Below, piece after piece: positions 1 to 14,032 of a stretch of DNA of 14,032 bases (position 1 is its first letter; the number at the start of each line of letters is the position of its first letter). Source of the DNA: a virus. A program made the position numbers and the translations under genes. The stretch is from the UHGV virus genome UHGV-0332040, one strand, 5' to 3'. The notes beneath the pieces were generated by a model, which was not told the origin of the DNA, did no database searches, and was given only the letters and a program-made list of their open reading frames with translations.

Positions 1-1
1 A

Positions 2-415
2 TTAGTGCGCACTCATACGCGCCATGTTCAACACCTTCCGCACAGAGGTTTCAGACACGCCAACCTTACTTGCAATGTAACGATTCTTCTGGCCTTTTGC
101 AGAGCGCTCGATAATGTCAGCGCGTACTGCCTCAGTGATCACCTTGCGGGGTCTGGCTCGATTCTTCTCGTGCCGTTCACGTTCGCGCATCCGCTCGGCC
201 ATCTTCGGCGGCAGCACAGGGGAAAGCCCACGGCTAACGCCAGAGGTGCGGGTGTCGGACGTGGCAGCTCGGGCAACGATATAAACCACTTCGTCTGGAT
301 TGAAAACGTGCTGCACACGCTCAGGGTAAATGTGGTCGCATCTACCCAGCGGCAAGGCGAAATCCGGGCGCACGTCAGCGACACGCTCCACGGCATGGAA
401 ATTACAGGTACTCAT
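2..415 (-). CDS. HTH-domain DNA-binding protein, C-terminus runs off the window (partial)
   Basis: ORF with ATG at 415 and GAGG 8 nt upstream; no stop before the window edge. Translation contains an HTH-like stretch (IIERSAKGQKNRYIASKVGVSETSVRKVL). Function not assignable from sequence alone. Confidence 0.5.
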   Translation of the reverse strand: MSTCNFHAVERVADVRPDFALPLGRCDHIYPERVQHVFNPDEVVYIVARAATSDTRTSGVSRGLSPVLPPKMAERMRERERHEKNRARPRKVITEAVRADIIERSAKGQKNRYIASKVGVSETSVRKVLNMARMSAH

Positions 416-554
416 TAGGAACCTCGGTTAATTAAAAACAGGCTTTTAGATGCCGCGCAGAATGCAGCTTGCGGGGACTCATGCGCTTAGATTGGTGTGG
501 TAGTACCGGGTTGGAGCGCACTCAGTCTTGCAGGGCGCATTCCACCGTTGGGCG

Positions 555-1241
555 TTAGCGACCAGCACGTTTGCCAGCGGAGCGCTGCGCAACCAGAGCG
601 CGGTATTGAATGTCGTACTGGCGATGGCCGGGGCCATACCCTGATTGCTGCGCCCACTGCGAAAGCTGATCATACGCTGCAATAAACTCAGCATGAGACA
701 TACCAACAGGTTGCGAGGCAGGCTGGCCGTATGGGTTCCCCTGTGATGGGACATAACCAGTCGCAGTGCCTGCGGCCATACGCTCTTGCAGATAATGAAC
801 CGCCCGCTGCATCTGCGCAGGGTCGCCAGACATAACCATCCGTTCAAGGGTTGATTGCGTCCCGGCGTCGAGCGTGCCAGCGTACTGCAACATCGCGTCA
901 ACTGTACCCTGCCCTAGCTGGCTTTCGACAGACTGGTGAAACTGCCCCATCAGCCCATGAAGTTCAGGAGTCAACTCAACAGTAGTGCCATCCTGTAATT
1001 GCAGTGTGTCGCCCACTTGTGCAGCAACATCAATCTGCTGGTCTTGCTGGTTGGCAAAGTTACTTTCGCTCCAGCTTTGATTAATGTTCGCTGGCTGCGT
1101 TTTCAGGAAATCAGCATCAGGTGTTGTCTGGTCGAATCGGCTAGCGCCGTTGTCAGCACCTACAGGTGCGGCCATGTACGGCGATTGCTGCGGCGCAGTA
1201 TCAGCGCCCGAAAGATATGGATTAACATTCTGGTCAGCCAT
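555..1241 (-). CDS. Hypothetical protein, Q/G/A-rich, 228 aa
   Basis: ATG at 1241 preceded by AGAGG SD inside the upstream gene; 2-nt gap to the upstream stop. Low-complexity Gln-rich composition; no recognisable catalytic motif. Confidence 0.55.
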   Translation of the reverse strand: MADQNVNPYLSGADTAPQQSPYMAAPVGADNGASRFDQTTPDADFLKTQPANINQSWSESNFANQQDQQIDVAAQVGDTLQLQDGTTVELTPELHGLMGQFHQSVESQLGQGTVDAMLQYAGTLDAGTQSTLERMVMSGDPAQMQRAVHYLQERMAAGTATGYVPSQGNPYGQPASQPVGMSHAEFIAAYDQLSQWAQQSGYGPGHRQYDIQYRALVAQRSAGKRAGR

Positions 1242-1243
1242 GA

Positions 1244-1483
1244 TTATGCAACCTCTTGTGATGTAACTCGGCGATGTGCCAGTTCAAGTAAAAGCATGTG
1301 TGCGTGTACGCAGCGTGGGGGAATCATCTTCTGACCGTGGTACGCCTTGCAGAGATCTTGTCTGTCAATTTGATACACACGAGCCAGATCGATTTGGCGT
1401 AGATTCAAGGCATCAGCAATGAATTTCAGTTGTTGCCCGCACTCCACCGCGCGGCGCGGCTCCATTAAAATGATGGTGCTCAT
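1244..1483 (-). CDS. Hypothetical small protein (79 aa; start revised to internal ATG)
   Basis: The track ORF 1244..1525 overlaps the upstream gene. The internal ATG at 1483 (MSTIIL...) has a GAGGA SD about 8 nt upstream and sits just after the upstream stop at 1498. Confidence 0.5.
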   Translation of the reverse strand: MSTIILMEPRRAVECGQQLKFIADALNLRQIDLARVYQIDRQDLCKAYHGQKMIPPRCVHAHMLLLELAHRRVTSQEVA

Positions 1484-1497
1484 GAAATAATCCTCAG

Positions 1498-1731
1498 TTA
1501 GATAAGGCCATGACGACGCAACCAACGTCGCTCGCCAACGGAGCCACGCGGTCGCTGCCTTGGGTTCTGGTTTGGTGCTTGGCCGGGATCAGTTCGTCCT
1601 TCCCCGGACAGGTTCTGTGTCAGCACATCCCAGCCGCGTGATTCAAACGGGGCGTATCCCTCGCGCTGTTCGTCAAGGTTCACATAGAGATCAGGGTTAA
1701 CGGCAGGGTGCAGCGGTTCGTTCTCTGCCAT
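1498..1731 (-). CDS. Hypothetical protein, 77 aa
   Basis: ATG at 1731 shares one base with the TGA stop of the upstream gene (TGATG), suggesting translational coupling. The GTG at 1734 reported by the ORF track is less likely. Confidence 0.5.
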   Translation of the reverse strand: MAENEPLHPAVNPDLYVNLDEQREGYAPFESRGWDVLTQNLSGEGRTDPGQAPNQNPRQRPRGSVGERRWLRRHGLI

Positions 1732-2291
1732 CACTTAGCCCCGAATCGCGTGTTAACATCTTCCAAAATATCGGGGTAGCTCCAGCGGTTACGCATCAGG
1801 CGCAGGACATGAGCAACAGCCTCAACAGAGATCCCAAGCTCTCCAGCGATCTCGGTTTGTTTCCAGCCGAAGCGCTCCAGCTTGTGCATCTGATCGAGGT
1901 CGGCGCTCAACAGGCGGCGCATCGTCTGAGGTTTCTCAGGCTTCGCTTTAACAGCTTTCGGCATCGGGTGGGTGTGGGCGTTGCTAAAGCGGGAATGTGC
2001 GATAGCCAGCACAGTCTCAGGGCGAATCAGCATATCGCGGGCAATCATAAACTCTGTATCGCGGTGCAGCTTGCCGGGCTTATAGCGGCTGCGGATGGCG
2101 TTGTACTCCGCCAGAGTGATATCAGCATCGTCTTTCCAATTTTCGGCCAAGTCATCGACATAGACGCCACGGATTACAGCATCAATATCGGTCAGGGTAT
2201 GACCTGTCTCCGCTGCAATCTCTTCATTGTTCTTTAGGTGCTTATGAGCCAGCGTGTTAATGCGCTGGATATCGGTAATGCTCAAAGTCAT
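1731..2291 (-). CDS. HTH protein with C-terminal sigma-70 region-4-like motif (regulator or DNA-binding packaging/replication accessory)
   Basis: 186-aa ORF; C-terminal WKQTEIAGELGISVEAVAHVLRLMRNRW resembles region-4/LuxR-type HTH. The start overlaps the upstream stop (ATGA). Confidence 0.6.
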   Translation of the reverse strand: MTLSITDIQRINTLAHKHLKNNEEIAAETGHTLTDIDAVIRGVYVDDLAENWKDDADITLAEYNAIRSRYKPGKLHRDTEFMIARDMLIRPETVLAIAHSRFSNAHTHPMPKAVKAKPEKPQTMRRLLSADLDQMHKLERFGWKQTEIAGELGISVEAVAHVLRLMRNRWSYPDILEDVNTRFGAK

Positions 2292-2464
2292 ACATTAAAC
2301 TCCGAATCAAAATTGATCTGGTCAGTAACCAGCGAATGAATCAGCGCAAGGCTGGATGCGGTATGTGTGCCCGACTTGCGGGCGTTGTCGTACATGAAGC
2401 GGGCTACACGTTGATATTTCTCCGGCAGCGTGGCGAACCATTGCCGGAACTGTTCGGGGGTCAT
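2288..2464 (-). CDS. Small hypothetical protein, 58 aa (not in supplied ORF track)
   Basis: Hand translation of the minus strand from ATG at 2464: MTPEQFRQWFATLPEKYQRVARFMYDNARKSGTHTASSLALIHSLVTDQINFDSEFNV. It fills the otherwise empty gap 2292-2460 and has ATGA overlaps with both neighbours. Confidence 0.4.
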   Translation of the reverse strand: MTPEQFRQWFATLPEKYQRVARFMYDNARKSGTHTASSLALIHSLVTDQINFDSEFNV

Positions 2465-2670
2465 TGGTCGTCATCCTCCGGGAACACGTTGTTAAAGGTT
2501 GTATCAGGCGAGTCGGCGGCGTTCTGCTTGAGGAAGTTCACGCAGGATGACAACTCGGCAGCAGCCATGCGTGACTCTCCCGCCTCGTCCTCCTTAAGCC
2601 TGCGCGTCAACGCACCCAGCAGCAGGGTTTTTAGTTCCCATGCTCCGGCTTCAAATTCAGATTTCGTCAT
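2461..2670 (-). CDS. Hypothetical small acidic protein, 69 aa
   Basis: ORF in an operon with ATGA overlaps at both ends (2667-2670 and 2461-2464). Confidence 0.5.
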   Translation of the reverse strand: MTKSEFEAGAWELKTLLLGALTRRLKEDEAGESRMAAAELSSCVNFLKQNAADSPDTTFNNVFPEDDDQ

Positions 2671-3098
2671 TGGTGGTTATCTCCAGTTAGTCCCATTGCA
2701 CGCAAGTGTTGAATGACCTCGGCATGTACTGGTTTTGGTAAAAACAGGCGACGCTGCACGGATTGAAGTATCTCGTCGCGCGTCTTGTCGGCAGGGTGAA
2801 CAGTCCCATTAAAGACCTCACGAGCCATGCGATAGGTCGGCCAAAGGCGAGCGCCATCCTCCCTGCGACGGAATCTATTCAGCACAGCGGCCAGACACTC
2901 CCACGGCTCACAGTTATTGAGCAGGCAATACCGCTGTAGCGGTGTCGTTGCCCGGCGCATGATGGCTTCACGATTAAGGGTCTGAATATGACGTTCGGCC
3001 AGTCCGTCGAATGAATAGCCGTTCAAAGCAAAGGCGAGCTGCGCATTAAGCAGGGCGTCAGAACGCCCCGCACGATGCAGTGCGGTTTCATCAGGCAT
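2667..3098 (-). CDS. Hypothetical protein, 143 aa
   Basis: ORF on the same strand about 43 nt downstream of the helicase stop; ATGA overlap with the next gene. No recognisable motif. Confidence 0.55.
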   Translation of the reverse strand: MPDETALHRAGRSDALLNAQLAFALNGYSFDGLAERHIQTLNREAIMRRATTPLQRYCLLNNCEPWECLAAVLNRFRRREDGARLWPTYRMAREVFNGTVHPADKTRDEILQSVQRRLFLPKPVHAEVIQHLRAMGLTGDNHQ

Positions 3099-3141
3099 AA
3101 GGATTCTCCAGAAAGGAATTTAAACAGGCGAGCTGGTCAGC

Positions 3142-5031
3142 TCAGAGGAAGCGGGAGATGTAACCCCAATTGCAGTTTTCAGGGCGGTACAACGCTGCCA
3201 GCTCATCAGGTACACCGGACGGCACCGGGGCAGAGTCGGCGTCATAGGTGATGGGGTCGCCATACAGAGCCAACGATGACCACAGCAGAAAAGCACGGGC
3301 AGGTTGACCGTCACGCCCGGCACGTCCGATCATCTGAACTAAATCGGGCAGGTCTTCGGGAACATAAGTGACAATTACGTTACGCACGCCAGAGATATCA
3401 GCCCCCAGCCCGAAGGCTTTAGTAGCAATCAGAACCGCGCCGGGCGTGCTGGCAAACCACGCAGCGTTAGCGTGACGCTGGTCGCGGCTCAGTCGCTCAA
3501 CGTCAGAATGGTAAGGCCGGGCGCGGTCTCCCAGTTCGTTGAGATACGCATACAGCATCTTGATACTGTCCACCATCACCAGCGTCTTCTCATCCAGCGG
3601 GAGGGCATCGACCAGACCAACGGCAGCCCGGCGCGTAGTTGCGCACTGCTGAACAGGAATAAGCTGGATGTTTTCACGGGCAGCACTGGCGCGGTAGGTG
3701 AGGAACTCGCCACGACAGCCAAGCTCTTTCATCAAGCCAGACTCATCACCTTTTCGCAGGGTCGCAGTAAACGCGCACCGCTGAGCATCCGGGAAGGCAT
3801 TTTTCAGGGTGTGTTTCATTGCAGGGAAAGCGTCCCGGAACTCCCATTCATCAACGGTATGAACCTCGTCAATGATAAATCTGTCCACACCAGCGGCCAT
3901 CAGCGCAGCCAGCACCTGATTGCCCGGCACCAGATGCTCAGGTGAAACTACGGCAACGTGGAAAGCGCCAGCAGCCAACCCCGCAAGCTGTTGCGCATTG
4001 CGTCGCCTCGGCAGCTTGTCGCCAAAGGCAACAGCGTGAACGCCAGTTTCTAGCAACTGCTGTAACACCTGCTGCTTGATGGTGTTTGTAGGCACAACAA
4101 TAACGGTCAGACCGTCATCAGAATCAGATTCAAATTGCAGGGCATAGGTGAATGCAGCCGTCTTTCCGTACCCGGTTGGCAGTACGGCCAATACATCGCG
4201 GTCACGGGCAAATACGGCGGCAGCTACGTCCTGCTGGCCGGGTCTCCAGTCTCTGCCATCTAGCGGTGGTAACGGTACGAATGCCGGGCGGTCGCATTGC
4301 TCCAGCTCGCGGAACCTGTACGGCGCGGTAACCAGCGGCGGGATGGACGGCGGCAGGCCAGCACCCCCAACGTCACAATGCAGATTCAGCGTATTGAATT
4401 TATCATCCGTGGGTTTCAGCTCACCGCACCACAACTGACGGAAAGCCGGGCAGTCACCCAGTCGCGTAAAGTCAGCATGGCGCATAGCTTCCAGCTTGCT
4501 CATGCCGCGACTGATACGACGCACGATCTTCTCATCGCAAATCAGAAACTCACGGCAGGCTTTGAGGAAGGCATTCTGCCCGGTTGTCGCTTCCGGGATG
4601 GAGTGCTCGCGCGGTTTAAGCGCAGCGTCATCAACGCGAACGCCGGGGAAATCTGGCGGCAGCGGCTCGGCGTACCGGGCAGGCTTTTTGTTTAGCCACA
4701 TCTCCAGCTCAGCGCGGCGGCAGTGGATTGCATCGCCCGGCTGGATAATCTGGCGCAACCCGGCATCAGCGCGGCGGGAATGTCGCTTGCGGCCAATTCC
4801 ATTCGCCTCTTTCCATTCACGGAACGACATAACTGAACCATCTGCATTGTAGAAATACTGCCCGGAAACGGTGTTAAGCGCTGCCTTCACTGGTCGCTGT
4901 TTAACAGGGCATAACTTGGAATGAGGTATAACGATCTTATCCGCAACCAGTTGCTGAGCATCCGCAGGCTCGGTGTTCAGCGGTTCGGCGTCAGCGGCCA
5001 GCGTAAGCAAGCGGTTTAAATTGGTTGGCAT
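3142..5031 (-). CDS. RecQ-like superfamily-2 DNA helicase with an N-terminal domain of about 260 aa of unknown function
   Basis: 629-aa ORF. Helicase motifs read directly from the translation: motif I LPTGYGKT, motif Ia-like IVVPTNTIKQQV, motif II IIDEVHTVDEWEFRDAF (DExH with the RecQ-type W..FR signature), motif III FTAT, motif VI QMIGRAGRDG. GGAG SD upstream of ATG 5031. Confidence 0.85.
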   Translation of the reverse strand: MPTNLNRLLTLAADAEPLNTEPADAQQLVADKIVIPHSKLCPVKQRPVKAALNTVSGQYFYNADGSVMSFREWKEANGIGRKRHSRRADAGLRQIIQPGDAIHCRRAELEMWLNKKPARYAEPLPPDFPGVRVDDAALKPREHSIPEATTGQNAFLKACREFLICDEKIVRRISRGMSKLEAMRHADFTRLGDCPAFRQLWCGELKPTDDKFNTLNLHCDVGGAGLPPSIPPLVTAPYRFRELEQCDRPAFVPLPPLDGRDWRPGQQDVAAAVFARDRDVLAVLPTGYGKTAAFTYALQFESDSDDGLTVIVVPTNTIKQQVLQQLLETGVHAVAFGDKLPRRRNAQQLAGLAAGAFHVAVVSPEHLVPGNQVLAALMAAGVDRFIIDEVHTVDEWEFRDAFPAMKHTLKNAFPDAQRCAFTATLRKGDESGLMKELGCRGEFLTYRASAARENIQLIPVQQCATTRRAAVGLVDALPLDEKTLVMVDSIKMLYAYLNELGDRARPYHSDVERLSRDQRHANAAWFASTPGAVLIATKAFGLGADISGVRNVIVTYVPEDLPDLVQMIGRAGRDGQPARAFLLWSSLALYGDPITYDADSAPVPSGVPDELAALYRPENCNWGYISRFL

Positions 5032-5052
5032 GGTGCAAACTCCAGAGAAGGA

Positions 5053-5490
5053 TTAAATACTACGCGCCCAAGCTAAATCTTCGGGTGTCCGACTTTCGAT
5101 TAACGCTAACTGCCAGCGTAAGTAATCCTCATGTTCTTTGGTGTATCGGGGAATACCTATAGGATTTTTCACAGCGTCCGGGTTAGTCCTCGCGACTTCC
5201 CTGCAATCTCGGTCGAAAGCCCAGCGGGCAACTTCCACCGATTCGTAATCCGTAAATCGGTACGGCCTTGTGCGGGAACGTACACGCCAGACAACTTGCC
5301 CTAATTCGTGGATGTATATGCCGCAAAGTTCATCCGGGCTTGGGTGATACAATGGCTCCCCATAATTCTGGCGCATGAACTTCACAAACTTTTGATTGCG
5401 GCGGGCACGCCGTGCTTTTTCGCGTCGCTCCTCGGCTTCATACTCTTTTTGAATGGCGGCACGGTCTACCGGGATAAGTGTTTTGCTCAT
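5053..5490 (-). CDS. Hypothetical protein, 145 aa (first gene of the operon; start revised)
   Basis: The track ORF 5053..5667 has no SD at its first ATG. The internal ATG at 5490 (MSKTLIPV...) has GGAGA 7 nt upstream. Arg/Lys-rich N-terminal region. Confidence 0.55.
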   Translation of the reverse strand: MSKTLIPVDRAAIQKEYEAEERREKARRARRNQKFVKFMRQNYGEPLYHPSPDELCGIYIHELGQVVWRVRSRTRPYRFTDYESVEVARWAFDRDCREVARTNPDAVKNPIGIPRYTKEHEDYLRWQLALIESRTPEDLAWARSI

Positions 5491-5557
5491 ACAGTGATCT
5501 CCAGAAATTAATGTGAGTTTGGAACGGGGCGCAGGACGGAAGCGCCGGGAGTGTGGC

Positions 5558-5756
5558 AGTCTGTCCTCCTTAGTAGTTACCATCATTGCAATGGCGTCGG
5601 AGTTCTGTCTCTCTTTAGTAGTGATCTTCATCCAGTAATTTGGATTAAATGCAGACACGGCGGGCATTGCAGCGAGATGGAGAGTAGGCGGGCTTGCGGT
5701 TTCAGTCTGCCTTAGTACAAGTTTCTAGTGGTCGGTAGCCTTTCCCTTATTAGTAG
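5558..5756. repeat. Iteron/operator-like direct repeats with TTAGTA(G/C) core in the operon leader
   Basis: Plus-strand copies: AGTCTGTCCTCCTTAGTAG (5558-5576), GTTCTGTCTCTCTTTAGTAG (5602-5621), AGTCTGCCTTAGTAC (5704-5718), plus a core-only TTAGTAG at 5750-5756. All lie upstream of the operon start at 5490. Confidence 0.5.
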
Positions 5757-6024
5757 CTCTCATTTATCCGGGGCTTGTCTTCCCACACAGTAGCCGTCTT
5801 CTAAAGCAACCACACCACAATCCACTACTGGCAAGGAGTTAGCAGACACGGTGATGTAGGCTACTCAAGTGTGGATTTGTAGGCGTTTTATAGTATCTGT
5901 CCTTCTTATTAGACACCTTTAAATTTCATTAATAAATACAGTTAGTTAAACGGTTATCTTTATTACTTATAAATTTCACAGATCAATAAATTAAAATTGA
6001 TCGGAATTATCAGCTTTAATTTTC

Positions 6025-6053
6025 TTGACAGCTATTTGTATAATGGTTTTAAG
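6025..6053 (+). promoter_or_regulatory. Sigma-70 promoter-like hexamers in an AT-rich island (TTGACA 6025-6030; perfect TATAAT 6039-6044)
   Basis: Both consensus hexamers are present but only 8 bp apart, so they cannot belong to one promoter. TTGACA could pair with TTTAAG (6048-6053, 17-bp spacer), or TATAAT with a weak -35 upstream. No plus-strand ORF follows. Confidence 0.25.
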
Positions 6054-6222
6054 AAGTTGTATCGGAGTGAGCGACTGGCAGTGAGCGTAGCGAACGATAA
6101 GCCAGTCGGCGAAGAACGAAGAGTATGAGATGACTTGTCATCGAATACGATGAGTGATTGAGCGGTACGAACGGAGATACGCTGTATAACAGTTAGAACA
6201 GTTAACAAGCTGATTAATGCTT

Positions 6223-6387
6223 TCAATGATTATCTGAATCAGTGTTATCAATTCCGAAATAACTCTTCCTCTCCTGTATTGATTCAATCATTTCTTTCAT
6301 TTCAAGAATCACTACCAGCTCAGCTAATAACCGTCTCAGTTCAACATTTGAATCATTAGCACGACACTTATTTTCTGAGTATTCCAT
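6223..6387 (-). CDS. Small hypothetical protein, 54 aa, in AT-rich island (not in supplied ORF track)
   Basis: ATG at 6387 with GGGAG SD 8 nt upstream; translation MEYSENKCRANDSNVELRRLLAELVVILEMKEMIESIQERKSYFGIDNTDSDNH; AT-rich codons unlike the neighbouring genes. Confidence 0.3.
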   Translation of the reverse strand: MEYSENKCRANDSNVELRRLLAELVVILEMKEMIESIQERKSYFGIDNTDSDNH

Positions 6388-6479
6388 ACGGTCAACTCCC
6401 TACGGTATAAGTCCATTCCAATCCGTTCACAGATTACATTGCTGAATGATCATCAGACAAGTGGCAGTCATCATCACCA

Positions 6480-6800
6480 AGTTAGAGTCGTCTCGCTACA
6501 TATCCCCGCCGGATTGCCAGCGCGGCTAACACGGTTGTGAGGAGCGCCGAGCATCACAGCGGACGCAGGCCGATGAACGAGCCGTAGGTGAGTGAAAGCG
6601 GACTCGCGGACGCGAGAAGCGCAGCAGCAGGCGGCGACTGATAAACGAGCCAGACAGGTGAGTGCAAGCAGGCGTAAGCACTGCACCGTTGAGAGGTGTG
6701 GAGACGGCGGAACGTCTCCGCGTTAGGGAGGTGGATTTGGGGAGGATGTGCAAGGCACACCTCGCTCCACCCACGGGGTGTCGGTGGGTAGGGGTATAAC
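6480..6800 (+). other. T-depleted, purine-rich non-coding block with tandem repeats and GC hairpins (candidate ncRNA or protein-binding array)
   Basis: Stops in all plus frames; the minus frames are open only because that strand is A-poor. Hand count: 9 T in 6541-6660. Tandem repeat pair 6572-6599 and 6640-6669; palindrome CTCGCG-GA-CGCGAG 6603-6616; hairpins at 6700-6719 and 6769-6789. Confidence 0.35.
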
Positions 6801-6910
6801 GCTAATTGGTTAAGTGTACACATGTACGCTGAAATCATTAAAAGCCTATAGAAACAGCATGTAACCCAGCACCACGACATAACCAATTATCGTTGAACCC
6901 CCTCCCCGGC

Positions 6911-7246
6911 CCCACCCGGAATTTTTCAGTGATGAATCACTTCACAATCTGATCTCGATGTTCATCGTCTGGCACGGCTAAAGCCCCGCCATCTCTTCAC
7001 ATCGAGAGCCGCAAGTAATACGAAAATACATTATAAATCATAGCATTACGACATCGCGCATAACATAACGCTCTGAAATTAATACGAAAGCTGTAGGTCA
7101 TCCATCACCCACAGCCCAGTAACGGCCAGTGCTGGCACCTCATTTGGCTGTAGGTCAGCCCGACCCCACCGCCCAATAACCCCACCCGGCAGCAATGGCA
7201 CGGCACCAGACGCAGCGTAACGATCTCTGAGTTGATAAATCACTTA
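6911..7246. repeat. Cluster of paired short repeats in the C+A-rich non-coding block 3' of the serine recombinase gene
   Basis: CCCACCCGG at 6911-6919 and 7181-7189; TAATACGAAA at 7016-7025 and 7080-7089; GCTGTAGGTCA at 7090-7100 and 7147-7157; palindrome-containing TGATGAATCACTT at 6930-6942 and TGATAAATCACTT at 7234-7246. Confidence 0.45.
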
Positions 7247-7329
7247 GGGCAGCGTAACCCACACCCAACGGCTCACATCCTCGCAGAGAGGCTCACAGAT
7301 CACCTCGTGACATTTCACAGCATCAACCC

Positions 7330-7953
7330 TCAGACGCTGGCAGCCAGCTCACGCTTAATGCGGTAGAACGTTGCCCGGCTTATCCCGGCAGCTTTCATGA
7401 TGCGCTCCGGTTTCACACCCTGCGCCAGCATTTCCCTGACGGTCTCGCGAGCGGCGGCATCCTTCTGACTCCCACGATAAAGCCCCTCAGCTTTGGCTCG
7501 TTCAATGCCCTGCCGCTGGCGCATCAGTCGCGTCTCGTAGTCCACGCGGGCCATTGTAGCGAGGATATCGATCAGCATTGCGTTAACGGCTCTGAGGATG
7601 CCGCTGGTTAGCTCTGACGCGGTTTCGTTCAGCAACTGCCACGAGGTTGGCAGGTCAACGGCGACGATCACCAGCCCCTTATCCTGAATCCTCTGTTTCA
7701 GTGTCGCCCATTCCTTTTGTGTCAGGCGGCTTAGCCTGTCTATGCTTTCGACAAGTAGAACGTCGCCAGCCTCCGCCTCACCCAGCAGGCGCATCAGTTC
7801 AGGACGCTCCAGCCGCGCACCGCTGGCGTTCTCGATGTATCGCGCAGCAATAGACCAACCACGCTCATTAGCGAAATCCTCCAGCGCAGGAACGGCACGG
7901 TCGGCGTGTTGCTCGGCGGTGGATGCCCTGGCATACAGACGAACGTTATTCAT
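7330..7953 (-). CDS. Small serine recombinase (resolvase/invertase family)
   Basis: 207-aa ORF with GGAGGG SD. N-terminal catalytic motif YARASTAEQ (Ser11), LLVESIDRLSRL, and a C-terminal HTH (ISRATFYRIKRELA), typical of resolvase/Hin-Gin-type enzymes. Confidence 0.85.
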   Translation of the reverse strand: MNNVRLYARASTAEQHADRAVPALEDFANERGWSIAARYIENASGARLERPELMRLLGEAEAGDVLLVESIDRLSRLTQKEWATLKQRIQDKGLVIVAVDLPTSWQLLNETASELTSGILRAVNAMLIDILATMARVDYETRLMRQRQGIERAKAEGLYRGSQKDAAARETVREMLAQGVKPERIMKAAGISRATFYRIKRELAASV

Positions 7954-8536
7954 GATTCACCCTCCAAATCTCAGTGAAGTATCACATCCCGACATGAAGG
8001 AGATCACACTTAAAAACCGTGGTCAATAGGGTATAAAATAAATTTGATTGCGACAGCTTAGGCACATCACAATGCGGTATACCCGGATGAGACAGAGACA
8101 GCCAGCGGCAGACTGGCACCGAGTCACAGCAAAACCCCGGCGCACCCAGCGAACGCAGCGCAAAGCGCACACAGGAGATCAGCACGGCACCGCCACGATC
8201 TCGAAATCACAAAGGCGTTGAATCAAACATTGCAACCGCAGCAGTAACCAGCCAGCATTTCGCGCCTGCAACGGTTGTCTCGGATGAGCAAAATCTTAGG
8301 GTTTTCTCAGCGACCCCTGACGCGCGGGCACGCACATGCGCACGGGGGCGCGGGCGAGCTATACAGTTGAGGGAGGGGCAACCATAAGCGTGCAATTTTT
8401 CAAGCCGGGACTTTTAACAGTGGGATTGTGAGGCTATTTTGCATTCAGAGAGTGAGGCTGTAGGGTAGCTCCCCTTGAACCAGATAACGCTAAGCTAACC
8501 ATTTTCCCCACTGCTTAAGCCACTTTGCGTTGACGT

Positions 8537-9037
8537 TCAGCACCCCACAGCAGCATTATCCGGCATCAGAAACGGAATCAGTTTAGTATCACCATGCACA
8601 TATAACGGGTGCATAGGCTCTCCCGTTGCGTTAATTTTAAAACACTTCGTATCTACAGGAAGGAACGCCCGTACTACGGCAGAGCGTTTCAGGTGCCGCC
8701 CTTCATTCCCCCACGCAGCAACAACGATACCAGCACCAGCTATCAATTCTGCCAGATACTTATCATTATCCGCCCCGACAGGCTCCGGGAATCTCATCAT
8801 CTCAAAGCGGTCAGTACACACATACGCGAACAGGTTCGCGATACGTACCCCCCCGAAGCCCCAGCTCTGCGCAAATGAGATACAACGTTTCAGTGTGGGG
8901 TCGTCAAGCTCTGCGTCCGCATACGATGGATTCAAACCGATGAAAAGAGCATAAGGCTTTGCAGCGTCCCACGTTCTGGAAATAGCGTAACGGTACTTCC
9001 CGCACACAGAGAAGATCGCGTCTTTGTTCACATCCAT
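8537..9037 (-). CDS. DUF1643-like protein, 166 aa
   Basis: Translation carries the motif block I recall as characteristic of DUF1643 (CGKYRY...FIGLNPSYADAELDDPTLKRCISFAQSWGFGG). Assignment is from memory of the family signature, not from a search. GAGGG SD upstream of ATG 9037. Confidence 0.55.
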   Translation of the reverse strand: MDVNKDAIFSVCGKYRYAISRTWDAAKPYALFIGLNPSYADAELDDPTLKRCISFAQSWGFGGVRIANLFAYVCTDRFEMMRFPEPVGADNDKYLAELIAGAGIVVAAWGNEGRHLKRSAVVRAFLPVDTKCFKINATGEPMHPLYVHGDTKLIPFLMPDNAAVGC

Positions 9038-9039
9038 GA

Positions 9040-9180
9040 TTAACCCTCTTCACTACGTTTATCATCCCGCATCGAGTCAATGAAGTCGCGTTGCTCCTGC
9101 GTCAGTTCCAGATTTTCTAACAACTTGTCTAATTCTATTTCGGCGGATTCTTGCTTCTGCAAACGCTCTTTGTCAGCCAT
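9040..9180 (-). CDS. Small acidic hypothetical protein, 46 aa, translationally coupled to the DUF1643 gene (not in supplied ORF track)
   Basis: ATG at 9180; translation MADKERLQKQESAEIELDKLLENLELTQEQRDFIDSMRDDKRSEEG; its TAA stop lies 2 nt upstream of the DUF1643 ATG, with that gene's SD inside its 3' end. Confidence 0.35.
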   Translation of the reverse strand: MADKERLQKQESAEIELDKLLENLELTQEQRDFIDSMRDDKRSEEG

Positions 9181-9671
9181 GCCAAGCCCCACAAGATTAG
9201 GATTAATCTTAGGCTACAAAATGATCAATACAAATGCAACGGATTGTTATTTATTACAGATACAAGAATTAAGGGGGAAATAATCAGGAGGGGATGCCCC
9301 GGACTGCCAGCACAGAACCGGGGCGAATGCGGACGGAGCCACCCATCAGCCGAATAACCATAGCCTATTTTCTGGCAATAGCAAGCCATAAGCGCCGTGT
9401 TGGGTACACTCAGCAGCAGCGCCATCGGCGCATCATCATCTCAATCTTGTACAATCATCCGTTCACTTATCGAGTACCGTTCATTTATGGCACGGTGAAC
9501 ACCACGGCAGAGCCAGCCCCTTTCCCGGACTGGTTAGGCTTCCCAACATCAGCTCGTTTATCCGTGGCGTGTCATCACGACAGGCGGGAACCGGACACCG
9601 CGCTAAGTGCGGAACAGATGAATGTTTCAGGGAATCATGCCGGGTGAACGGCTTTCAGTTCATGTTGGACT

Positions 9672-9920
9672 ATCGCGGTATGACCAGTGGAACGACCGCC
9701 AGCGCTTTGCTAAACTCCCTGTTCACCGTTCAACAAATCGCGGCAACTATCAGGGTAAATAGCGGTACTTTGGTCACATCACCTTAGAGCTAACTCATTG
9801 AGTTATAAGGCTTTTAATGGGCTGGAGCGGGCGAAGGGAATCGAACCCTCATAGCTAACCCATTGAATTGTGAACCAAAATAAGTAATCGCGGTACTTAT
9901 CCCGGTAGTTGGTAGCGGTA
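9672..9920. repeat. Candidate integrase arm-type repeats (ATCGCGGTA / GCGGTACTT family) on both sides of the att core
   Basis: ATCGCGGTA 9672-9680; ATCGCGGCA 9737-9745; GCGGTACTT 9762-9770; ATCGCGGTACTT 9887-9898; GCGGTA 9915-9920. Three copies lie left of the core and two lie between the core and the int start. Confidence 0.4.
9823..9850 (-). other. att core: 28-nt 3' end of a tRNA-Gly gene (T-arm, acceptor 3' strand, U discriminator, CCA); not a complete tRNA
   Basis: Minus strand reads GAGGGTTCGATTCCCTTCGCCCGCTCCA, which matches my recollection of the 3' end of enterobacterial tRNA-Gly(CCC) glyU. No D-arm or anticodon arm is recognisable 5' of it, so it is a fragment. Confidence 0.65.
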
Positions 9921-9938
9921 GATTACAAGGTAATTACC

Positions 9939-11165
9939 ATGCCAATCAAGAAGACTTCTTATCTTTATGCAAACAAAGATGGGATATTCATCTTTCAAAT
10001 CTTTATCCCGGTGTACATGCGCCACTTATGGCACGGGCGGCGCTCACTCAAGAAATCGACAGGCACGCGGGACATCATGCAAGCTCGCATATTCCGTGAC
10101 CAATACTTATTAGAGTTCCGAAAGCTCCAGCTCATGATGAAACCGGATAACCCTATAAACCGGATTCATTCTGCTATTTCAGATCTTCACTTACTGGCGG
10201 GAATATCCAGCGACATTACCGCGCCCGTAACTACTCCAGCAGAACGAGGGAAACCAGCGTCGCCAAAATTGACAGATGTCAGTAAAGAATATGCAGAGCA
10301 ATACAAAGATCGGCGCTCTTATTCCACATTGAGTAAATCCGCTCGCGCTGTATCAGCATTCACTAAATCAACTAAGCGCCCAACAATTACAATAAACGGA
10401 ATCGGGCGGCGGCTCGTCTCTGACTTTCTGAAAGCGAACCAAGATAAGTTTTCCCGGCAGACGATGCAAAACTGGTTAACTTGCTTAGGTACGCTGTACG
10501 ACTTCGCCCGGCGTAAATATGACAATATCGCCCCTGATAATCCCTTTCACGGCCACAATCTGGAAGCCCGTCAGACAAACGAAAGTTACCAGCCGTTTGA
10601 ACCGCACCAGCTACAGACATTAACAAAAAAGGCAGGTGACGAAATAAGGGATGTAATAATAATCGGGCTGTATTCCGGGATGCGTCTTGATGAAATAGCC
10701 AGCATTAAACGGGATGAGGTTGTCACCATCGACGGCGTGCGGTGTTTCTATGTCAGTAAATCAAAAACAAAGGCGGGTATAAGGCATGTCCCTGTACACT
10801 CGCTGTTATTTGACATTGTTGATAAATACCTCGCGCAAAACAGCGGGGAGTACCTGCTCCCCCAATCCAACAAAATTAAACGCGCGGATGGTAAACGTGG
10901 GCCGTGGTATTCTCAGACATTTACCCGCTTACGTCGCCGGGTACTACCAACAGCCACAGAGCGCCAGTGTTTCCACTCCCTGCGTGGTCACTTCATCACC
11001 TGCTTAGACCGGGCAGGTGTACCAGAACAGCGCATAGGAGCTATTACCGGGCATACAGAGAAAAAGGCAAAGACGGAAGCATTTAAAACGTACAGCCAAG
11101 GGGCTGGGATGAAAGAACTATCTGAATACGTAGAGCTGGTAAGTTATCCAGAACTTGAATCATAA
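9939..11165 (+). CDS. int: Tyrosine recombinase / phage integrase
   Basis: 408 aa from ATG 9939 (AAGG SD 9 nt upstream); the track start at 9909 is a TTG. C-terminal catalytic region has GMRLDE (Arg), HSLRGHFIT (H-x-x-R...H) and a C-terminal Tyr in FKTYSQG. Lies 89 nt from the tRNA-derived core. Confidence 0.85.
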   Translation: MPIKKTSYLYANKDGIFIFQIFIPVYMRHLWHGRRSLKKSTGTRDIMQARIFRDQYLLEFRKLQLMMKPDNPINRIHSAISDLHLLAGISSDITAPVTTPAERGKPASPKLTDVSKEYAEQYKDRRSYSTLSKSARAVSAFTKSTKRPTITINGIGRRLVSDFLKANQDKFSRQTMQNWLTCLGTLYDFARRKYDNIAPDNPFHGHNLEARQTNESYQPFEPHQLQTLTKKAGDEIRDVIIIGLYSGMRLDEIASIKRDEVVTIDGVRCFYVSKSKTKAGIRHVPVHSLLFDIVDKYLAQNSGEYLLPQSNKIKRADGKRGPWYSQTFTRLRRRVLPTATERQCFHSLRGHFITCLDRAGVPEQRIGAITGHTEKKAKTEAFKTYSQGAGMKELSEYVELVSYPELES

Positions 11166-11167
11166 TT

Positions 11168-11596
11168 TCAGGCAGGGTAAATAATCCCCAGCCCGCGATA
11201 CTGGCGGCGGTATTCTCTGACCAGAGCATCCGCCGTCGCCCTCGGCAGCTTCGCCATATGCCCGGTACGATAGCCACCCTCGGCAGAATTCGCTGCACGA
11301 TGTACAACAGCCCGCACGCGCCCGGTTCTGTGGTCGTGGTCGAGGGTCGTGCTGCTGAACGCAACAGCCCGCCCGGTAACGGCACACCGTCGATACTGAT
11401 AATTCCACAGAAAGCAACGCACCGCAGCCACGTCAGCACGGCGCAACTCCAGTCGCCCTGAACCATTCAACAGGAGGCGATACACATCGTCGAATGCAGC
11501 AGCGTTTCTAACGCGCTCAGCCAGCGGCATATTGCCAAGGAACTCCAGATAATCCCGCATTGCTTTTCTTAAAAGTTGGTCTGTCCGTGTAACCAT
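11168..11596 (-). CDS. Endonuclease VII-like (recombination endonuclease VII family, HNH-type) protein
   Basis: 142-aa ORF with GGAGA SD; motif CAVTGR...LDHDHRTGRVRAVVHRAAN resembles the DHDH-x-TG-x-VRG core of T4 EndoVII-family proteins. Confidence 0.55.
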   Translation of the reverse strand: MVTRTDQLLRKAMRDYLEFLGNMPLAERVRNAAAFDDVYRLLLNGSGRLELRRADVAAVRCFLWNYQYRRCAVTGRAVAFSSTTLDHDHRTGRVRAVVHRAANSAEGGYRTGHMAKLPRATADALVREYRRQYRGLGIIYPA

Positions 11597-12295: not shown

Positions 12296-12823
12296 TTAGG
12301 CAGCCTGCAACAAATCGGCTGGCGTTGAGGGATGGTATCTGGCTTTAGCTTTTAGATAGGCAGCACGCGCCGCCGCTTCGGTTGTGAACAAGCCAAGGTG
12401 ATGGCGTACACCATTAACGCGAATGTAAGCCTCCCATTTACCAGAACAAGAATGACGGCTATATCCCTTCGCTTTGCGGTAGTTGTGCTGATTCTCCTGC
12501 GGTGTAACAGCGCGGAGGTTGCCCGGTCGATTATCGGCACGTACAGCGTTAATGTGGTCGATTTGCAGACCGTCAGGGATACCACCATTAGCAATGATGA
12601 AGGCCACGCGATGCGCATAAATCGAGTGCGTCCTGCCGTCGATGCGGACAGACACGCGCCGATACCCGGCGCTGTCCGTTGCGGTGTCAGCCAGTTCCCC
12701 GGCCTCAGCATAAATCCGCTTGTTGATTCCAATTCGGTCTACTGCATGGAACAGGCGGCCAGTCTCCGCATCGTATCGAAATAAAGAGCGTAGCAGCTCA
12801 GGGGCGTAAGCATCATTAACCAT
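12296..12823 (-). CDS. HNH homing-type endonuclease with AP2-like DNA-binding domain
   Basis: 175-aa ORF with GGAGGGG SD. HNH_3-type block GYRRVSVRIDGRTHSIYAHRVAFIIANGGIPDGLQIDHINAVRADNRPGNLRAVTPQENQHN, and an AP2-like C-terminal block SGKWEAYIRVNGVRHHLGLFTTEAAARAAYLKAKARYH. Confidence 0.8.
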   Translation of the reverse strand: MVNDAYAPELLRSLFRYDAETGRLFHAVDRIGINKRIYAEAGELADTATDSAGYRRVSVRIDGRTHSIYAHRVAFIIANGGIPDGLQIDHINAVRADNRPGNLRAVTPQENQHNYRKAKGYSRHSCSGKWEAYIRVNGVRHHLGLFTTEAAARAAYLKAKARYHPSTPADLLQAA

Positions 12824-12839
12824 GACTCAGCCCCTCCAG

Positions 12840-13835
12840 TTACACAGCTTGTCGGAAATTGATAACGCAGTCAGGGCGGCGCAGTCCAACATTGAACAGG
12901 CGATATGAGTCCATCACCATCGTCATTTCGCGCTCATCATCCCACTGGCGATTGATAACGCTCTGCGCTTCGACTGTCACAAGTACAGACGCAGGCCGGA
13001 ACAGCGTCGCCCGCGTCAGCGCTTCCTCTGAGGTAACGTCATAATCAGCGCCCAGTTCATGCCCGGTAATAGCTTCCTGCGGGTAACTGTTCAGCTCAAT
13101 GACTCGTACCCCAGCGACATAGCCAACTCGACGCCATGCGTAATCGTTGCCACTATCCCGGCTGTAACGGACGTTCATCAGCTTCTTATGTTCCATCAGG
13201 ATGCTGAACCAAGCCGGGTCGATAAGCAGTACCAGCTCGGCCACCGGAATATCTTTCTCAGTGAGAAAGCGATTAGCAGCCGCTTTTACGACGTGAGCCA
13301 ATTCGTTTGCGGCGTCCTCTTCGCTCCCCGCTGTCAGGTCGAGCGATACAACGTTATCCGTTAGTGGGTTAAACGTTGGTTGCAGTGTCGGCGGCGGTAC
13401 AAAGTCAGTCGCTTTGATTAGCTGGATGGTGTGCGCTTCGTCGTAGAATTTAGCGTGAGCAGTACCCATATTGCGGCTCAGCTCTGCGCGAAAGGTGGGC
13501 GCTGTCCAGTCGTCCTGATAGTCAATCGGAATGCGGATATAGCTCAGCGTATCCACAGAGATAATCAGCTTATCCGACTTAACAGCGGTAGGCTCCAGCG
13601 ATTGCCCTGCGGTTCTGCCCTTCACCTCCAGATCACCACTCAGGCGATCAATGCGGTATTGGTTGCTGGCTTTCAGCGGCCTGTATGTAGACAGCCCCTC
13701 TGCCAGAAATACGGATTTGGACTCTAAACGGGTCTGGACATCCCGGTCATAAGCCTCGATGTGAATATCATTGTCGGATTCCACCCCGCCATAATGTGGG
13801 CGAAACAGATCGGGACTGTACGAAGTATCAGTCAT
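12840..13835 (-). CDS. Major capsid protein, T7 gp10-like (HK97-fold family); start revised
   Basis: 331 aa from ATG 13835 (AGGAG SD 8 nt upstream). Several blocks align by eye with my recollection of T7 gp10A: KLIISVDTLSYIRIPIDYQD vs KVITIDGLLTADVLIYDIED, LLIDPAWFSIL vs FYCDPDSYSAIL, C-terminal YRLFNVGLRRPDCVINF vs YAMGHGGLRPEAAGAVVF. Not search-verified. Confidence 0.55.
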   Translation of the reverse strand: MTDTSYSPDLFRPHYGGVESDNDIHIEAYDRDVQTRLESKSVFLAEGLSTYRPLKASNQYRIDRLSGDLEVKGRTAGQSLEPTAVKSDKLIISVDTLSYIRIPIDYQDDWTAPTFRAELSRNMGTAHAKFYDEAHTIQLIKATDFVPPPTLQPTFNPLTDNVVSLDLTAGSEEDAANELAHVVKAAANRFLTEKDIPVAELVLLIDPAWFSILMEHKKLMNVRYSRDSGNDYAWRRVGYVAGVRVIELNSYPQEAITGHELGADYDVTSEEALTRATLFRPASVLVTVEAQSVINRQWDDEREMTMVMDSYRLFNVGLRRPDCVINFRQAV

Positions 13836-14032
13836 AAACAAAACTCCTACGTAGGTTGATGAAGCCCGCGCCATCGTCATGGCACAGACGTGCGGAATCC
13901 TCCCGCCGAGGCAGGATTCAGAACGGTATCGATTAAAGGGATGAGGTGCCCCGAAATGGGCGTTTTGAGGCCAGAGCTGGCGCGGTTCTCAGAGGTTAGT
14001 GCGCGTGAAGTAAGGCGAACGTATTACCTTGC

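Follow-up and report, generated by a model that had tools for sequence, protein, structure and literature searches.

The window analysed here is the complete 14,032-nucleotide stretch of the virus genome UHGV-0332040. At positions 8,537-9,180 it carries two closely spaced minus-strand genes, a small acidic open reading frame (ORF) and, downstream of it, a gene encoding a protein of the DUF1643 family. The features of this region are as follows.

8537..9037, minus strand: DUF1643 gene, 166 amino acids (aa); alpha/beta enzyme-like protein with motifs resembling those of uracil-DNA glycosylases (UDGs)
9040..9180, minus strand: small acidic ORF, 46 aa (stop codon within the coordinates); leader gene of the cassette
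9044..9048, minus strand: Shine-Dalgarno (SD) sequence GAGGG for DUF1643, located in the final codons of the small ORF
9197..9257, minus strand: putative promoter or conserved leader region upstream of the small ORF, common to elements with other cassettes
8534..9196, minus strand: exchange unit comprising the ribosome-binding site (RBS), the small ORF and the cargo ORF

The gene pair and its junction

The small ORF begins with ATG at 9180, encodes the peptide MADKERLQKQESAEIELDKLLENLELTQEQRDFIDSMRDDKRSEEG and ends with TAA at 9042-9040. The stop codon is followed by two nucleotides (TC) and then by the ATG of DUF1643 at 9037-9035, so that GAGGG (9048-9044) is separated from this ATG by a 6-nt spacer. 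Since the 3' end of the small ORF holds the SD sequence of DUF1643, translation of the latter is predicted to be coupled to that of the former. The diverged copies of the pair (loci L173-L175 and L186) have GAGGGGTAATCATG or GAGGGTTAATCATG at the junction, with the 2-nt gap kept. Co-expression and translational coupling of the two genes are very likely, because this geometry is retained in every copy. No ORF conserved as a protein was found in the 728 nt (9181-9908) and 583 nt (7954-8536) on either side of the pair, and a scan for terminators found none after DUF1643. The original prediction, which placed two minus-strand genes alone between the attachment/integrase region and the recombinase, with the small ORF stopping 2 nt before the DUF1643 start and containing its SD sequence, is correct in its coordinates and in all other sequence details.

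The small ORF is a real gene under strong purifying selection, as judged from codon comparison: the reading frame, its length and the junction are kept in L173-L175 and L186 despite differences at 20 of 141 nucleotides (14%), and the Nei-Gojobori ratios of nonsynonymous to synonymous substitution (dN/dS) are 0.08 and 0.14. The peptide has an isoelectric point of 4.37 and a net charge of -7 (15 Asp and Glu vs 8 Lys and Arg), and it matches no family in Pfam, PHROG, NCBIfam or PADLOC. The AlphaFold2 model, built with only 4 sequences, shows a hairpin of two helices (residues 2-24 and 28-45) with a predicted local distance difference test score (pLDDT) of 90.7.

Position of the pair in the element

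The window is a complete integrative element and represents a circular permutation of the prophage at locus L004, position 1 being joined to position 14032. Window 1-9853 corresponds to L004 19036-9185 and window 12568-14032 to L004 20501-19037. The host junction is the 3' end of tRNA-Gly(CCC), downstream of ygeR/actS. Three features define the surroundings of the pair.

9823..9853, minus strand: core of the phage attachment site (attP) and crossover point, identical to the 3' end of tRNA-Gly(CCC) (GAGGGTTCGATTCCCTTCGCCCGCTCCA)
7330..7953, minus strand: serine recombinase of the resolvase/invertase type (Pfam Resolvase, E=3.9e-25); conserved downstream flank of the hotspot
9909..11165, plus strand: tyrosine integrase (Pfam Phage_integrase, phrog_1), on the other side of attP and at the far end in the prophage

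The order in the integrated state is tRNA-Gly/attL, ~670 nt, small ORF, DUF1643, resolvase and, at the other end, integrase and attR. Owing to the permutation, no gene lies between attL and the pair in the integrated element, and ~670 nt separate the pair from the crossover. Comparison with L004 thus bears out the att-proximal position that had been proposed from the window.

The pair is one cassette of a cargo hotspot

Look-up of the exact resolvase protein retrieved ten loci, and seven different cargo sets lie between the attachment site and the resolvase in them. The alternatives to the DUF1643 cassette are listed below.

L197, L198, L202: N6/N4 methyltransferase and XcyI-type restriction enzyme
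L201: C5 methyltransferase and Eco29kI-type enzyme
L196, L199: proteins of 104, 216 and 273 aa
L203, L204 (2176-3978): small-ORF homolog, DUF6150 protein (93 aa; called in L204 only), unannotated proteins of 181 and 260 aa
L205 (2751-3353): proteins of 50 and 136 aa
L200: protein of 304 aa
L184 8381-8983, minus strand: the alternative cassette of 50-aa and 136-aa genes, present also in L190 and L205; near-isogenic elements

The restriction-modification (R-M) systems at this site are two different type II systems (Pfam RE_XcyI and RE_Eco29kI), and one R-M pair is also supported by PADLOC (MTase_II 477 bits, REase_II 681 bits). Since sister elements with an identical resolvase carry other cargo, including these two systems, the site is a genuine cargo/defence hotspot and the pair is one swappable cassette in it. 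The accessory-cargo position suggested for the pair is therefore strongly supported.

The limits of the exchanged unit can be seen in L205, where a 50-aa homolog of the small ORF together with an unrelated gene for 136 aa occupies the place of exactly window 8534-9196 (both ORFs and the RBS); the flanks are 96-97% identical up to 9197 and 8533. Because this exchange covers exactly both ORFs, the small ORF and its cargo behave as one cassette. The same 50-aa and 136-aa pair takes the place of the window cassette in E. coli strain 5735, the backbone of which is 98.8% identical over 7.5 kb (helicase 99.8%, resolvase 98.6%). In most variants the downstream boundary of variability is sharp at ~window 8409. 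Repeats or recombination sites were sought on both sides of the cassette, but none was convincing. The cassette was found in 0 of 5,426 complete E. coli genomes; the exact DUF1643 protein is recorded on 58 contigs.

The small ORF is not dedicated to DUF1643

The conservation of the pair was examined in 160 loci of diverse DUF1643 homologs (80 genomic and 80 viral). By tblastn, the small ORF is present solely in near-identical elements and at none of the 160 loci outside them. It is missing next to the closest non-identical DUF1643 genes (L007, L087, L167 and L169; 69-73% identity), which come from Pantoea (72%), Enterobacter hormaechei (73%) and E. coli (69%). Mostly DUF1643 occurs as a solo gene in phages, plasmids, integrative and conjugative elements (ICEs) and staphylococcal cassette chromosome (SCC) elements.

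The two genes also differ in their substitution pattern. In one and the same locus pair the synonymous divergence (dS) is 0.82 in the small ORF vs 0.066 in DUF1643, i.e. it jumps 12-fold at the gene junction; in comparison with L173 the first 190 nt of DUF1643 (8851-9037) are identical and the adjoining small ORF has 20 differences in 141 positions. A recombination breakpoint therefore lies at the junction. The small ORF and DUF1643 have separate histories, to judge from these divergences.

Distant homologs of the small ORF were found by synteny and by a degenerate-pattern scan of metagenomes. They are 44-61% identical, lie in other elements and share the core ELTxEQR[D/E]FIES[M/V]; the family has five allelic types with this conserved core, and dN/dS among the distant 47-aa forms is 0.13-0.37. 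A word-based protein search returned near-identical copies only, and the degenerate-pattern scan of viral contigs returned no homolog. In L204 the stop codon of the 50-aa homolog overlaps the ATG of DUF6150 by 1 nt and is preceded by the SD sequence GAGGGGGAG. In L184, L190 and L205 the 50-aa homolog is followed after 39 nt by the gene of an acidic 136-aa protein, for which no family match was found. In L187-L189 and L191 a 47-aa homolog occurs without a coupled partner gene.

The small protein is not dedicated to DUF1643, because its relatives head unrelated cargo genes. By these comparisons it is a hotspot leader gene common to several cassettes and not a dedicated DUF1643 subunit. Of the two-component module proposed in the original prediction, co-expression and coupling are thus retained on the strength of the junction geometry, and the notion of a DUF1643-specific module is abandoned in view of the absence of the partner elsewhere, the unrelated cargos and the dS jump. 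It is puzzling that a protein under such strong selection accompanies unrelated cargo.

Several observations on single loci can be added. In L188 (1234-4144), L189 and L191 the 47-aa homolog stands beside a 59%-identical integrase or near tRNA-Gly and is followed by chromosomal-looking genes, which looks like a decayed island retaining just the integrase and the small ORF. In L178 (~8144-8650; Enterobacter roggenkampii) DUF1643 is frameshifted in a G run and the small ORF is intact; the frameshift is either a pseudogene mutation or a sequencing error. The window itself contains at 6223-6387 (minus strand) a 54-aa acidic backbone ORF that weakly resembles the small-ORF family (ELRRLLAEL...EMIESIQE; tblastn E ~1e-3 against a small database). 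It is called as a gene in several loci and may be a distant paralog of the small ORF.

Upstream acidic proteins of other kinds are found in several DUF1643 clades. A 57-aa zinc-ribbon-like ORF (CPxC...CPHC, net charge -13) overlaps the DUF1643 start by 8 nt in Vibrio, Thalassolituus and Pseudomonadales (L026 5832-6002, L030 1833-2003 and L031 5829-5999, with a remnant in L029) and constitutes a second acidic upstream partner unrelated to the first. In phages PAK_P5 and D3 acidic proteins, likewise unrelated to the small ORF, overlap or abut the DUF1643 start. These cases are suggestive and keep the idea of an inhibitor alive, but acidic proteins and overlapping genes are common in phages.

Structure and motifs of the DUF1643 protein

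The window protein is a full-length member of Pfam PF07799 (131.9 bits at a cut-off of 22.5, profile positions 1-134 of 134, E=2e-38) and matches phrog_3230, to which no function is assigned (E=1.4e-51). Neither protein of the pair matched NCBIfam. A literature search on DUF1643, COG4333, PF07799, DUF950 and DUF960 found no functional study. The following residues are invariant among 44 homologs: Arg16, Trp23, Asn36-Pro37-Ser38, Asp46, Thr48, Asn68, Gly88, Asn91, Trp109-Gly110, Pro141, His143 and Leu145. The window protein has all of them.

Structure prediction, which had been proposed as a check for both proteins, gave a confident alpha/beta model for DUF1643 (pLDDT 92.2, predicted template modelling score 0.88) along with the helical hairpin of the small protein. 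The N-terminal half of the DUF1643 model is formed by a hairpin, strand 29-34 followed by NPS, helix 47-58 and strand 63-68 ending with Asn68. The C-terminal half consists of two helices, strand 104-108 followed by WG, helix 110-123, a short strand and the P-x-HPLY motif. The order of elements is thus b1-a-b2-a-a-b3-a-b4, with the invariant residues at the strand ends.

The motifs resemble those of UDGs: GLNPS follows strand 1, IANLF ends strand 2, AAWG is situated at strand 3 and P-x-HPLY follows strand 4. In UDGs motif A follows strand 1 (GINPG of Mug/TDG), an Asn ends strand 2 and motif B (HPSxL) follows strand 4. The agreement in the order of elements and motifs, as seen in the predicted model, is suggestive. 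In an hhalign comparison of 44 DUF1643 with 36 Mug/TDG sequences GLNPS falls on GINPG (P=1.7e-4, probability 49%, 18 columns, motif A only); with 212 DUF1643 sequences P is 3.7e-4 and the probability 36%. Under relaxed settings IANLFAfRaT falls on GITNLVxRaT, and in a single-sequence alignment with Ung the Asn123 strand and the WG strand are in register with DUF1643. The Asn68 strand is in register with Mug and Ung solely in low-confidence alignments. HPLY and IAN are invariant and occupy the secondary-structure positions expected for UDG; motif B is not in register in the alignments. Other alpha/beta folds score as well as the UDG fold. The informative Foldseek matches in BFVD were DUF1643 proteins only, and a sequence search of the Protein Data Bank (PDB) with the DUF1643 protein and the 44-sequence profile gave chance matches only. 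On balance, we consider it slightly more likely than not that DUF1643 belongs to the UDG superfamily.

A canonical UDG-superfamily gene (VVGQAPG ... HPSPRN; L012 457-1170, plus strand) is located 5 kb from DUF1643, not adjacent to it, in a Lysobacterales metagenome-assembled genome. This proximity is probably a coincidence.

Occurrence of DUF1643

DUF1643 was found in 149 phage records, including lytic Pseudomonas PAK_P5-like and Caulobacter phiCbK-like phages, SPbeta-like phages and mycobacteriophages. In phages the gene usually stands among small early genes or DNA-metabolism genes, and in phage Purky it has a DNA methyltransferase on each side. In Salmonella it is carried on a plasmid-type backbone with ParAB and MobI, in Idiomarina it adjoins Gabija and toxin-antitoxin genes, in Exiguobacterium it lies within an ICE-like region, and it is also cargo of an ISL3 element. 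SCC elements contain a conserved block ccrA-ccrB-DUF950(SaUGI)-DUF960-DUF1643 beside replication genes (PMC7581432; PMC12540322). In Enterobacteriaceae DUF1643 neighbours three different serine recombinases, which share 27-28% identity with one another; a general association with serine recombinases was considered and rejected, being seen at 3-4 of the 160 loci. This breadth fits a DNA-directed enzyme useful to mobile elements generally, and defence is not singled out by it.

Possible function of the cassette

The explanation that we tentatively prefer, giving it a probability a little short of even, is that the cassette is dispensable cargo of a defence hotspot, in which DUF1643 excises bases from foreign or modified DNA and the hairpin protein acts as a cassette-independent modulator. 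The cassette would then be one of the alternatives in the variable hotspot of a ~14-kb satellite-like element integrating into a tRNA gene. From one mRNA the hairpin protein would be made first and DUF1643 afterwards by translational coupling. DUF1643 would flip out and excise a DNA base by means of the invariant Asn36 (GLNPS), Asn68 and His143 (HPLY), and it would help the element against rival phages or other mobile DNA, much as the single-gene Brig glycosylases act. The hairpin protein probably modulates or neutralises the cargo in a generic way, or else serves a separate function. The Brig proteins (Brig1, Brig2 and Brig3) belong to the UDG superfamily and are proven single-gene antiphage effectors (PMC11078745; bioRxiv 10.1101/2025.10.29.685425; 10.64898/2026.02.25.707755). 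Both the UDG-type chemistry and the defence role of DUF1643 are putative.

A number of results weigh against this explanation. The match to Mug/TDG spans only 17-18 columns with a probability of 36-49%, and the hhalign P-values are not independent, because Mug was chosen after the motif had been noticed. Pfam UDG (PF03167) matches 0 of 44 DUF1643 members at E up to 10, where no other second family appeared either, and Foldseek against the PDB gave nothing at E<1e-3. Neither protein matched the PADLOC (2023) library at E up to 0.1, a library that predates Brig1-3. No convincing sigma-70 promoter was found in a scan upstream of the small ORF (9180, minus strand), and any physical interaction between the small protein and DUF1643 is hypothetical. 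Finally, the family occurs in strictly lytic phages (PAK_P5-like, phiCbK-like), conjugative-plasmid backbones and SCC elements, a distribution that fits the DNA metabolism of the element itself at least as well as defence.

DUF1643 might instead serve the element's own DNA metabolism, e.g. by repairing or processing DNA that has just been replicated or transferred, with the small ORF as an unrelated neighbour. Its presence on lytic and temperate phages, plasmid and ICE backbones, the ISL3 element and SCC speaks for this, as do its place in the conserved ccrA-ccrB block of SCC beside replication genes (PMC7581432; PMC12540322), in the early or DNA-metabolism regions of phages and near three different serine recombinases in Enterobacteriaceae. 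We regard this as a serious minority possibility. Against it speak the recombinase association, which is confined to 3-4 of 160 loci, and the fact that DUF1643 must be dispensable for the life cycle of the element, because the alternatives at the site include R-M systems and near-isogenic elements lack DUF1643. A role in counter-defence, where the cassette removes a base modification installed by the host or the acidic peptide blocks host Ung to the benefit of the satellite or its helper phage, would agree with the frequency of DUF1643 in phage early regions, where anti-defence genes cluster, with the Ung inhibitor SaUGI co-encoded by SCC elements and with an acidity like that of DNA mimics. 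However, the helical hairpin is unlike Ugi, p56 and SaUGI, and the alternative cargos at the site are classical defence genes, which makes this role very improbable.

The layout of the pair invites comparison with a toxin-antitoxin or abortive-infection system, in which DUF1643 would be a toxic DNA glycosylase and the acidic hairpin would neutralise its DNA-binding face until infection. The small acidic gene comes first and the ~160-aa gene follows after a 2-nt gap, as is canonical; small ORF and cargo are exchanged as one unit; homologs of the small ORF precede three unrelated cargos, as promiscuous antitoxin domains do; unrelated acidic genes overlap the DUF1643 start elsewhere (the 57-aa ORF of Vibrio and Thalassolituus, phages PAK_P5 and D3); and the acidic DNA mimic SaUGI is found within the DUF1643 block of SCC. 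Such a system is nevertheless unlikely: the majority of DUF1643 genes, among them those of enterobacteria at 69-73% identity, lack a partner of this kind, alleles of the small ORF have been shuffled against DUF1643 (dS 0.82 vs 0.066), 47-aa homologs exist without a coupled gene, and the small protein has no DNA-binding domain for autoregulation. The frameshifted DUF1643 with an intact small ORF in L178 is neutral at best. A related combination, which we hold to be decidedly unlikely, is that the hairpin family is a promiscuous partner (neutraliser, trigger sensor or adaptor) and DUF1643 an unrecognised clade of glycosylases directed against viruses or other mobile genetic elements, checked by independently recruited acidic proteins: the 46-aa hairpin here, the 57-aa zinc-ribbon protein in Vibrio and SaUGI in SCC. 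At the other extreme, the small ORF could be a mere coupling device, a leader that feeds ribosomes to any cargo and yields a functionless peptide. It bears the SD sequence of the downstream gene in two different cassettes, and it can be likened to the leader ORF-11 in attI1 of class 1 integrons, which enhances cassette translation. This is extremely improbable in view of the purifying selection (dN/dS 0.08-0.14, and 0.13-0.37 among the 47-aa forms), the core conserved at 44-61% identity across elements and the persistence of homologs where no gene follows.

Comparison with known systems

At the level of sequence nothing distinguishes the window protein from DUF1643 (PF07799; COG4333; phrog_3230), of which it is a full-length, high-scoring member. 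To the UDG superfamily (especially family 2 Mug/TDG, families 4/5 and Brig1/2/3) it appears similar in its size of ~160 aa, in the predicted order of strands and helices, in the positions of G-x-N-P-[GS] after strand 1, of the Asn ending strand 2 and of H-P-x-[YL] after strand 4, and in being single-gene cargo of mobile elements or defence regions. In contrast to UDGs it possesses an extra N-terminal beta-hairpin with the invariant Arg16 and Trp23, it has no Pfam UDG match and no Fe-S cysteine set, and its glycosylase activity is putative.

Defence hotspots are a feature of phage satellites and prophages, as in the P4/P2-type hotspots and the accessory regions of phage-inducible chromosomal islands (PICIs). 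The site in the window resembles them as a variable att-adjacent slot between conserved flanks that holds R-M systems and small gene sets of no assigned function. It differs in the type of the element (tRNA-Gly/tRNA-Leu integrase, serine recombinase, RecQ/DpdF-like helicase, lambda-E-like capsid without terminase or portal) and in that several cassettes start with a homologous small acidic leader gene. With the ccrAB-DUF950/SaUGI-DUF960-DUF1643 block of SCC it shares a DUF1643 gene near a serine recombinase and downstream of small proteins, including an acidic DNA mimic in SCC; the small proteins are unrelated, however, and the block belongs to the conserved core of SCC, in contrast to the dispensable cargo cassette of the window.

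The resemblance to type II toxin-antitoxin systems lies in a small acidic upstream gene coupled to a larger one and in a small-protein family with unrelated partners. The differences are the absence of a DNA-binding domain, a partner that is usually solo elsewhere, the shuffled alleles and a toxicity that is only hypothesised. Like the Ung-inhibiting DNA mimics Ugi, p56 and SaUGI, the small protein is small and acidic; unlike them, it has no Pfam, PHROG or NCBIfam match and is predicted to be a two-helix hairpin. The known Ung inhibitors contain a beta-sheet.

The DUF1643 family, the cargo hotspots of satellites and prophages and the Brig-type glycosylases are already known. The leader-protein family common to unrelated cassettes and the type of the element were not found described in a non-exhaustive search and may be new. 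On the whole, the pair is plausible as an accessory cassette, as yet unproven, and does not amount to a system of a new kind. Should DUF1643 prove to be a base-excision enzyme, there would be an activity to test for a family of no assigned function that is widespread among phages, plasmids, SCCmec and satellites, and the family would join the recently discovered antiviral glycosylases. The hotspot offers a natural set of near-isogenic elements differing in cargo, which is convenient for testing candidate defence cassettes, and the shared leader-protein family could reveal how such cassettes are regulated.

Other features of the element

Apart from the cargo site, the following backbone genes are of interest.

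3142-5031, minus strand: RecQ/DpdF-like helicase, 629 aa
12840-13880, minus strand: lambda-E-like major capsid protein (phrog_267, E=7e-70)
12296-12823, minus strand: HNH nuclease
11168-11596, minus strand: endonuclease VII

No terminase, portal or tail genes are present among the window genes annotated by Pfam, PADLOC and PHROG, and neither the Rfam scan nor the tRNA scan gave a match in the window. The helicase scores 1053 bits over residues 111-629 against PADLOC PDLC02858 ('DpdF') and 108 bits against the NCBIfam DpdF equivalog, the cut-off of which is 550. It seems that PDLC02858 was built from the satellite helicase and not from a true Dpd component. To our knowledge, the layout of the element fits none of the P4-like satellites, PICIs, capsid-forming PICIs (cf-PICIs) and PICI-like elements (PLEs), and it may represent an undescribed satellite type.

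The sister elements with the same resolvase use tRNA-Leu(CAA). In the window, 22-nt direct repeats (77% identical) at 9736-9757 and 9886-9907 flank the attP core and are candidate arm-type binding sites of the integrase.

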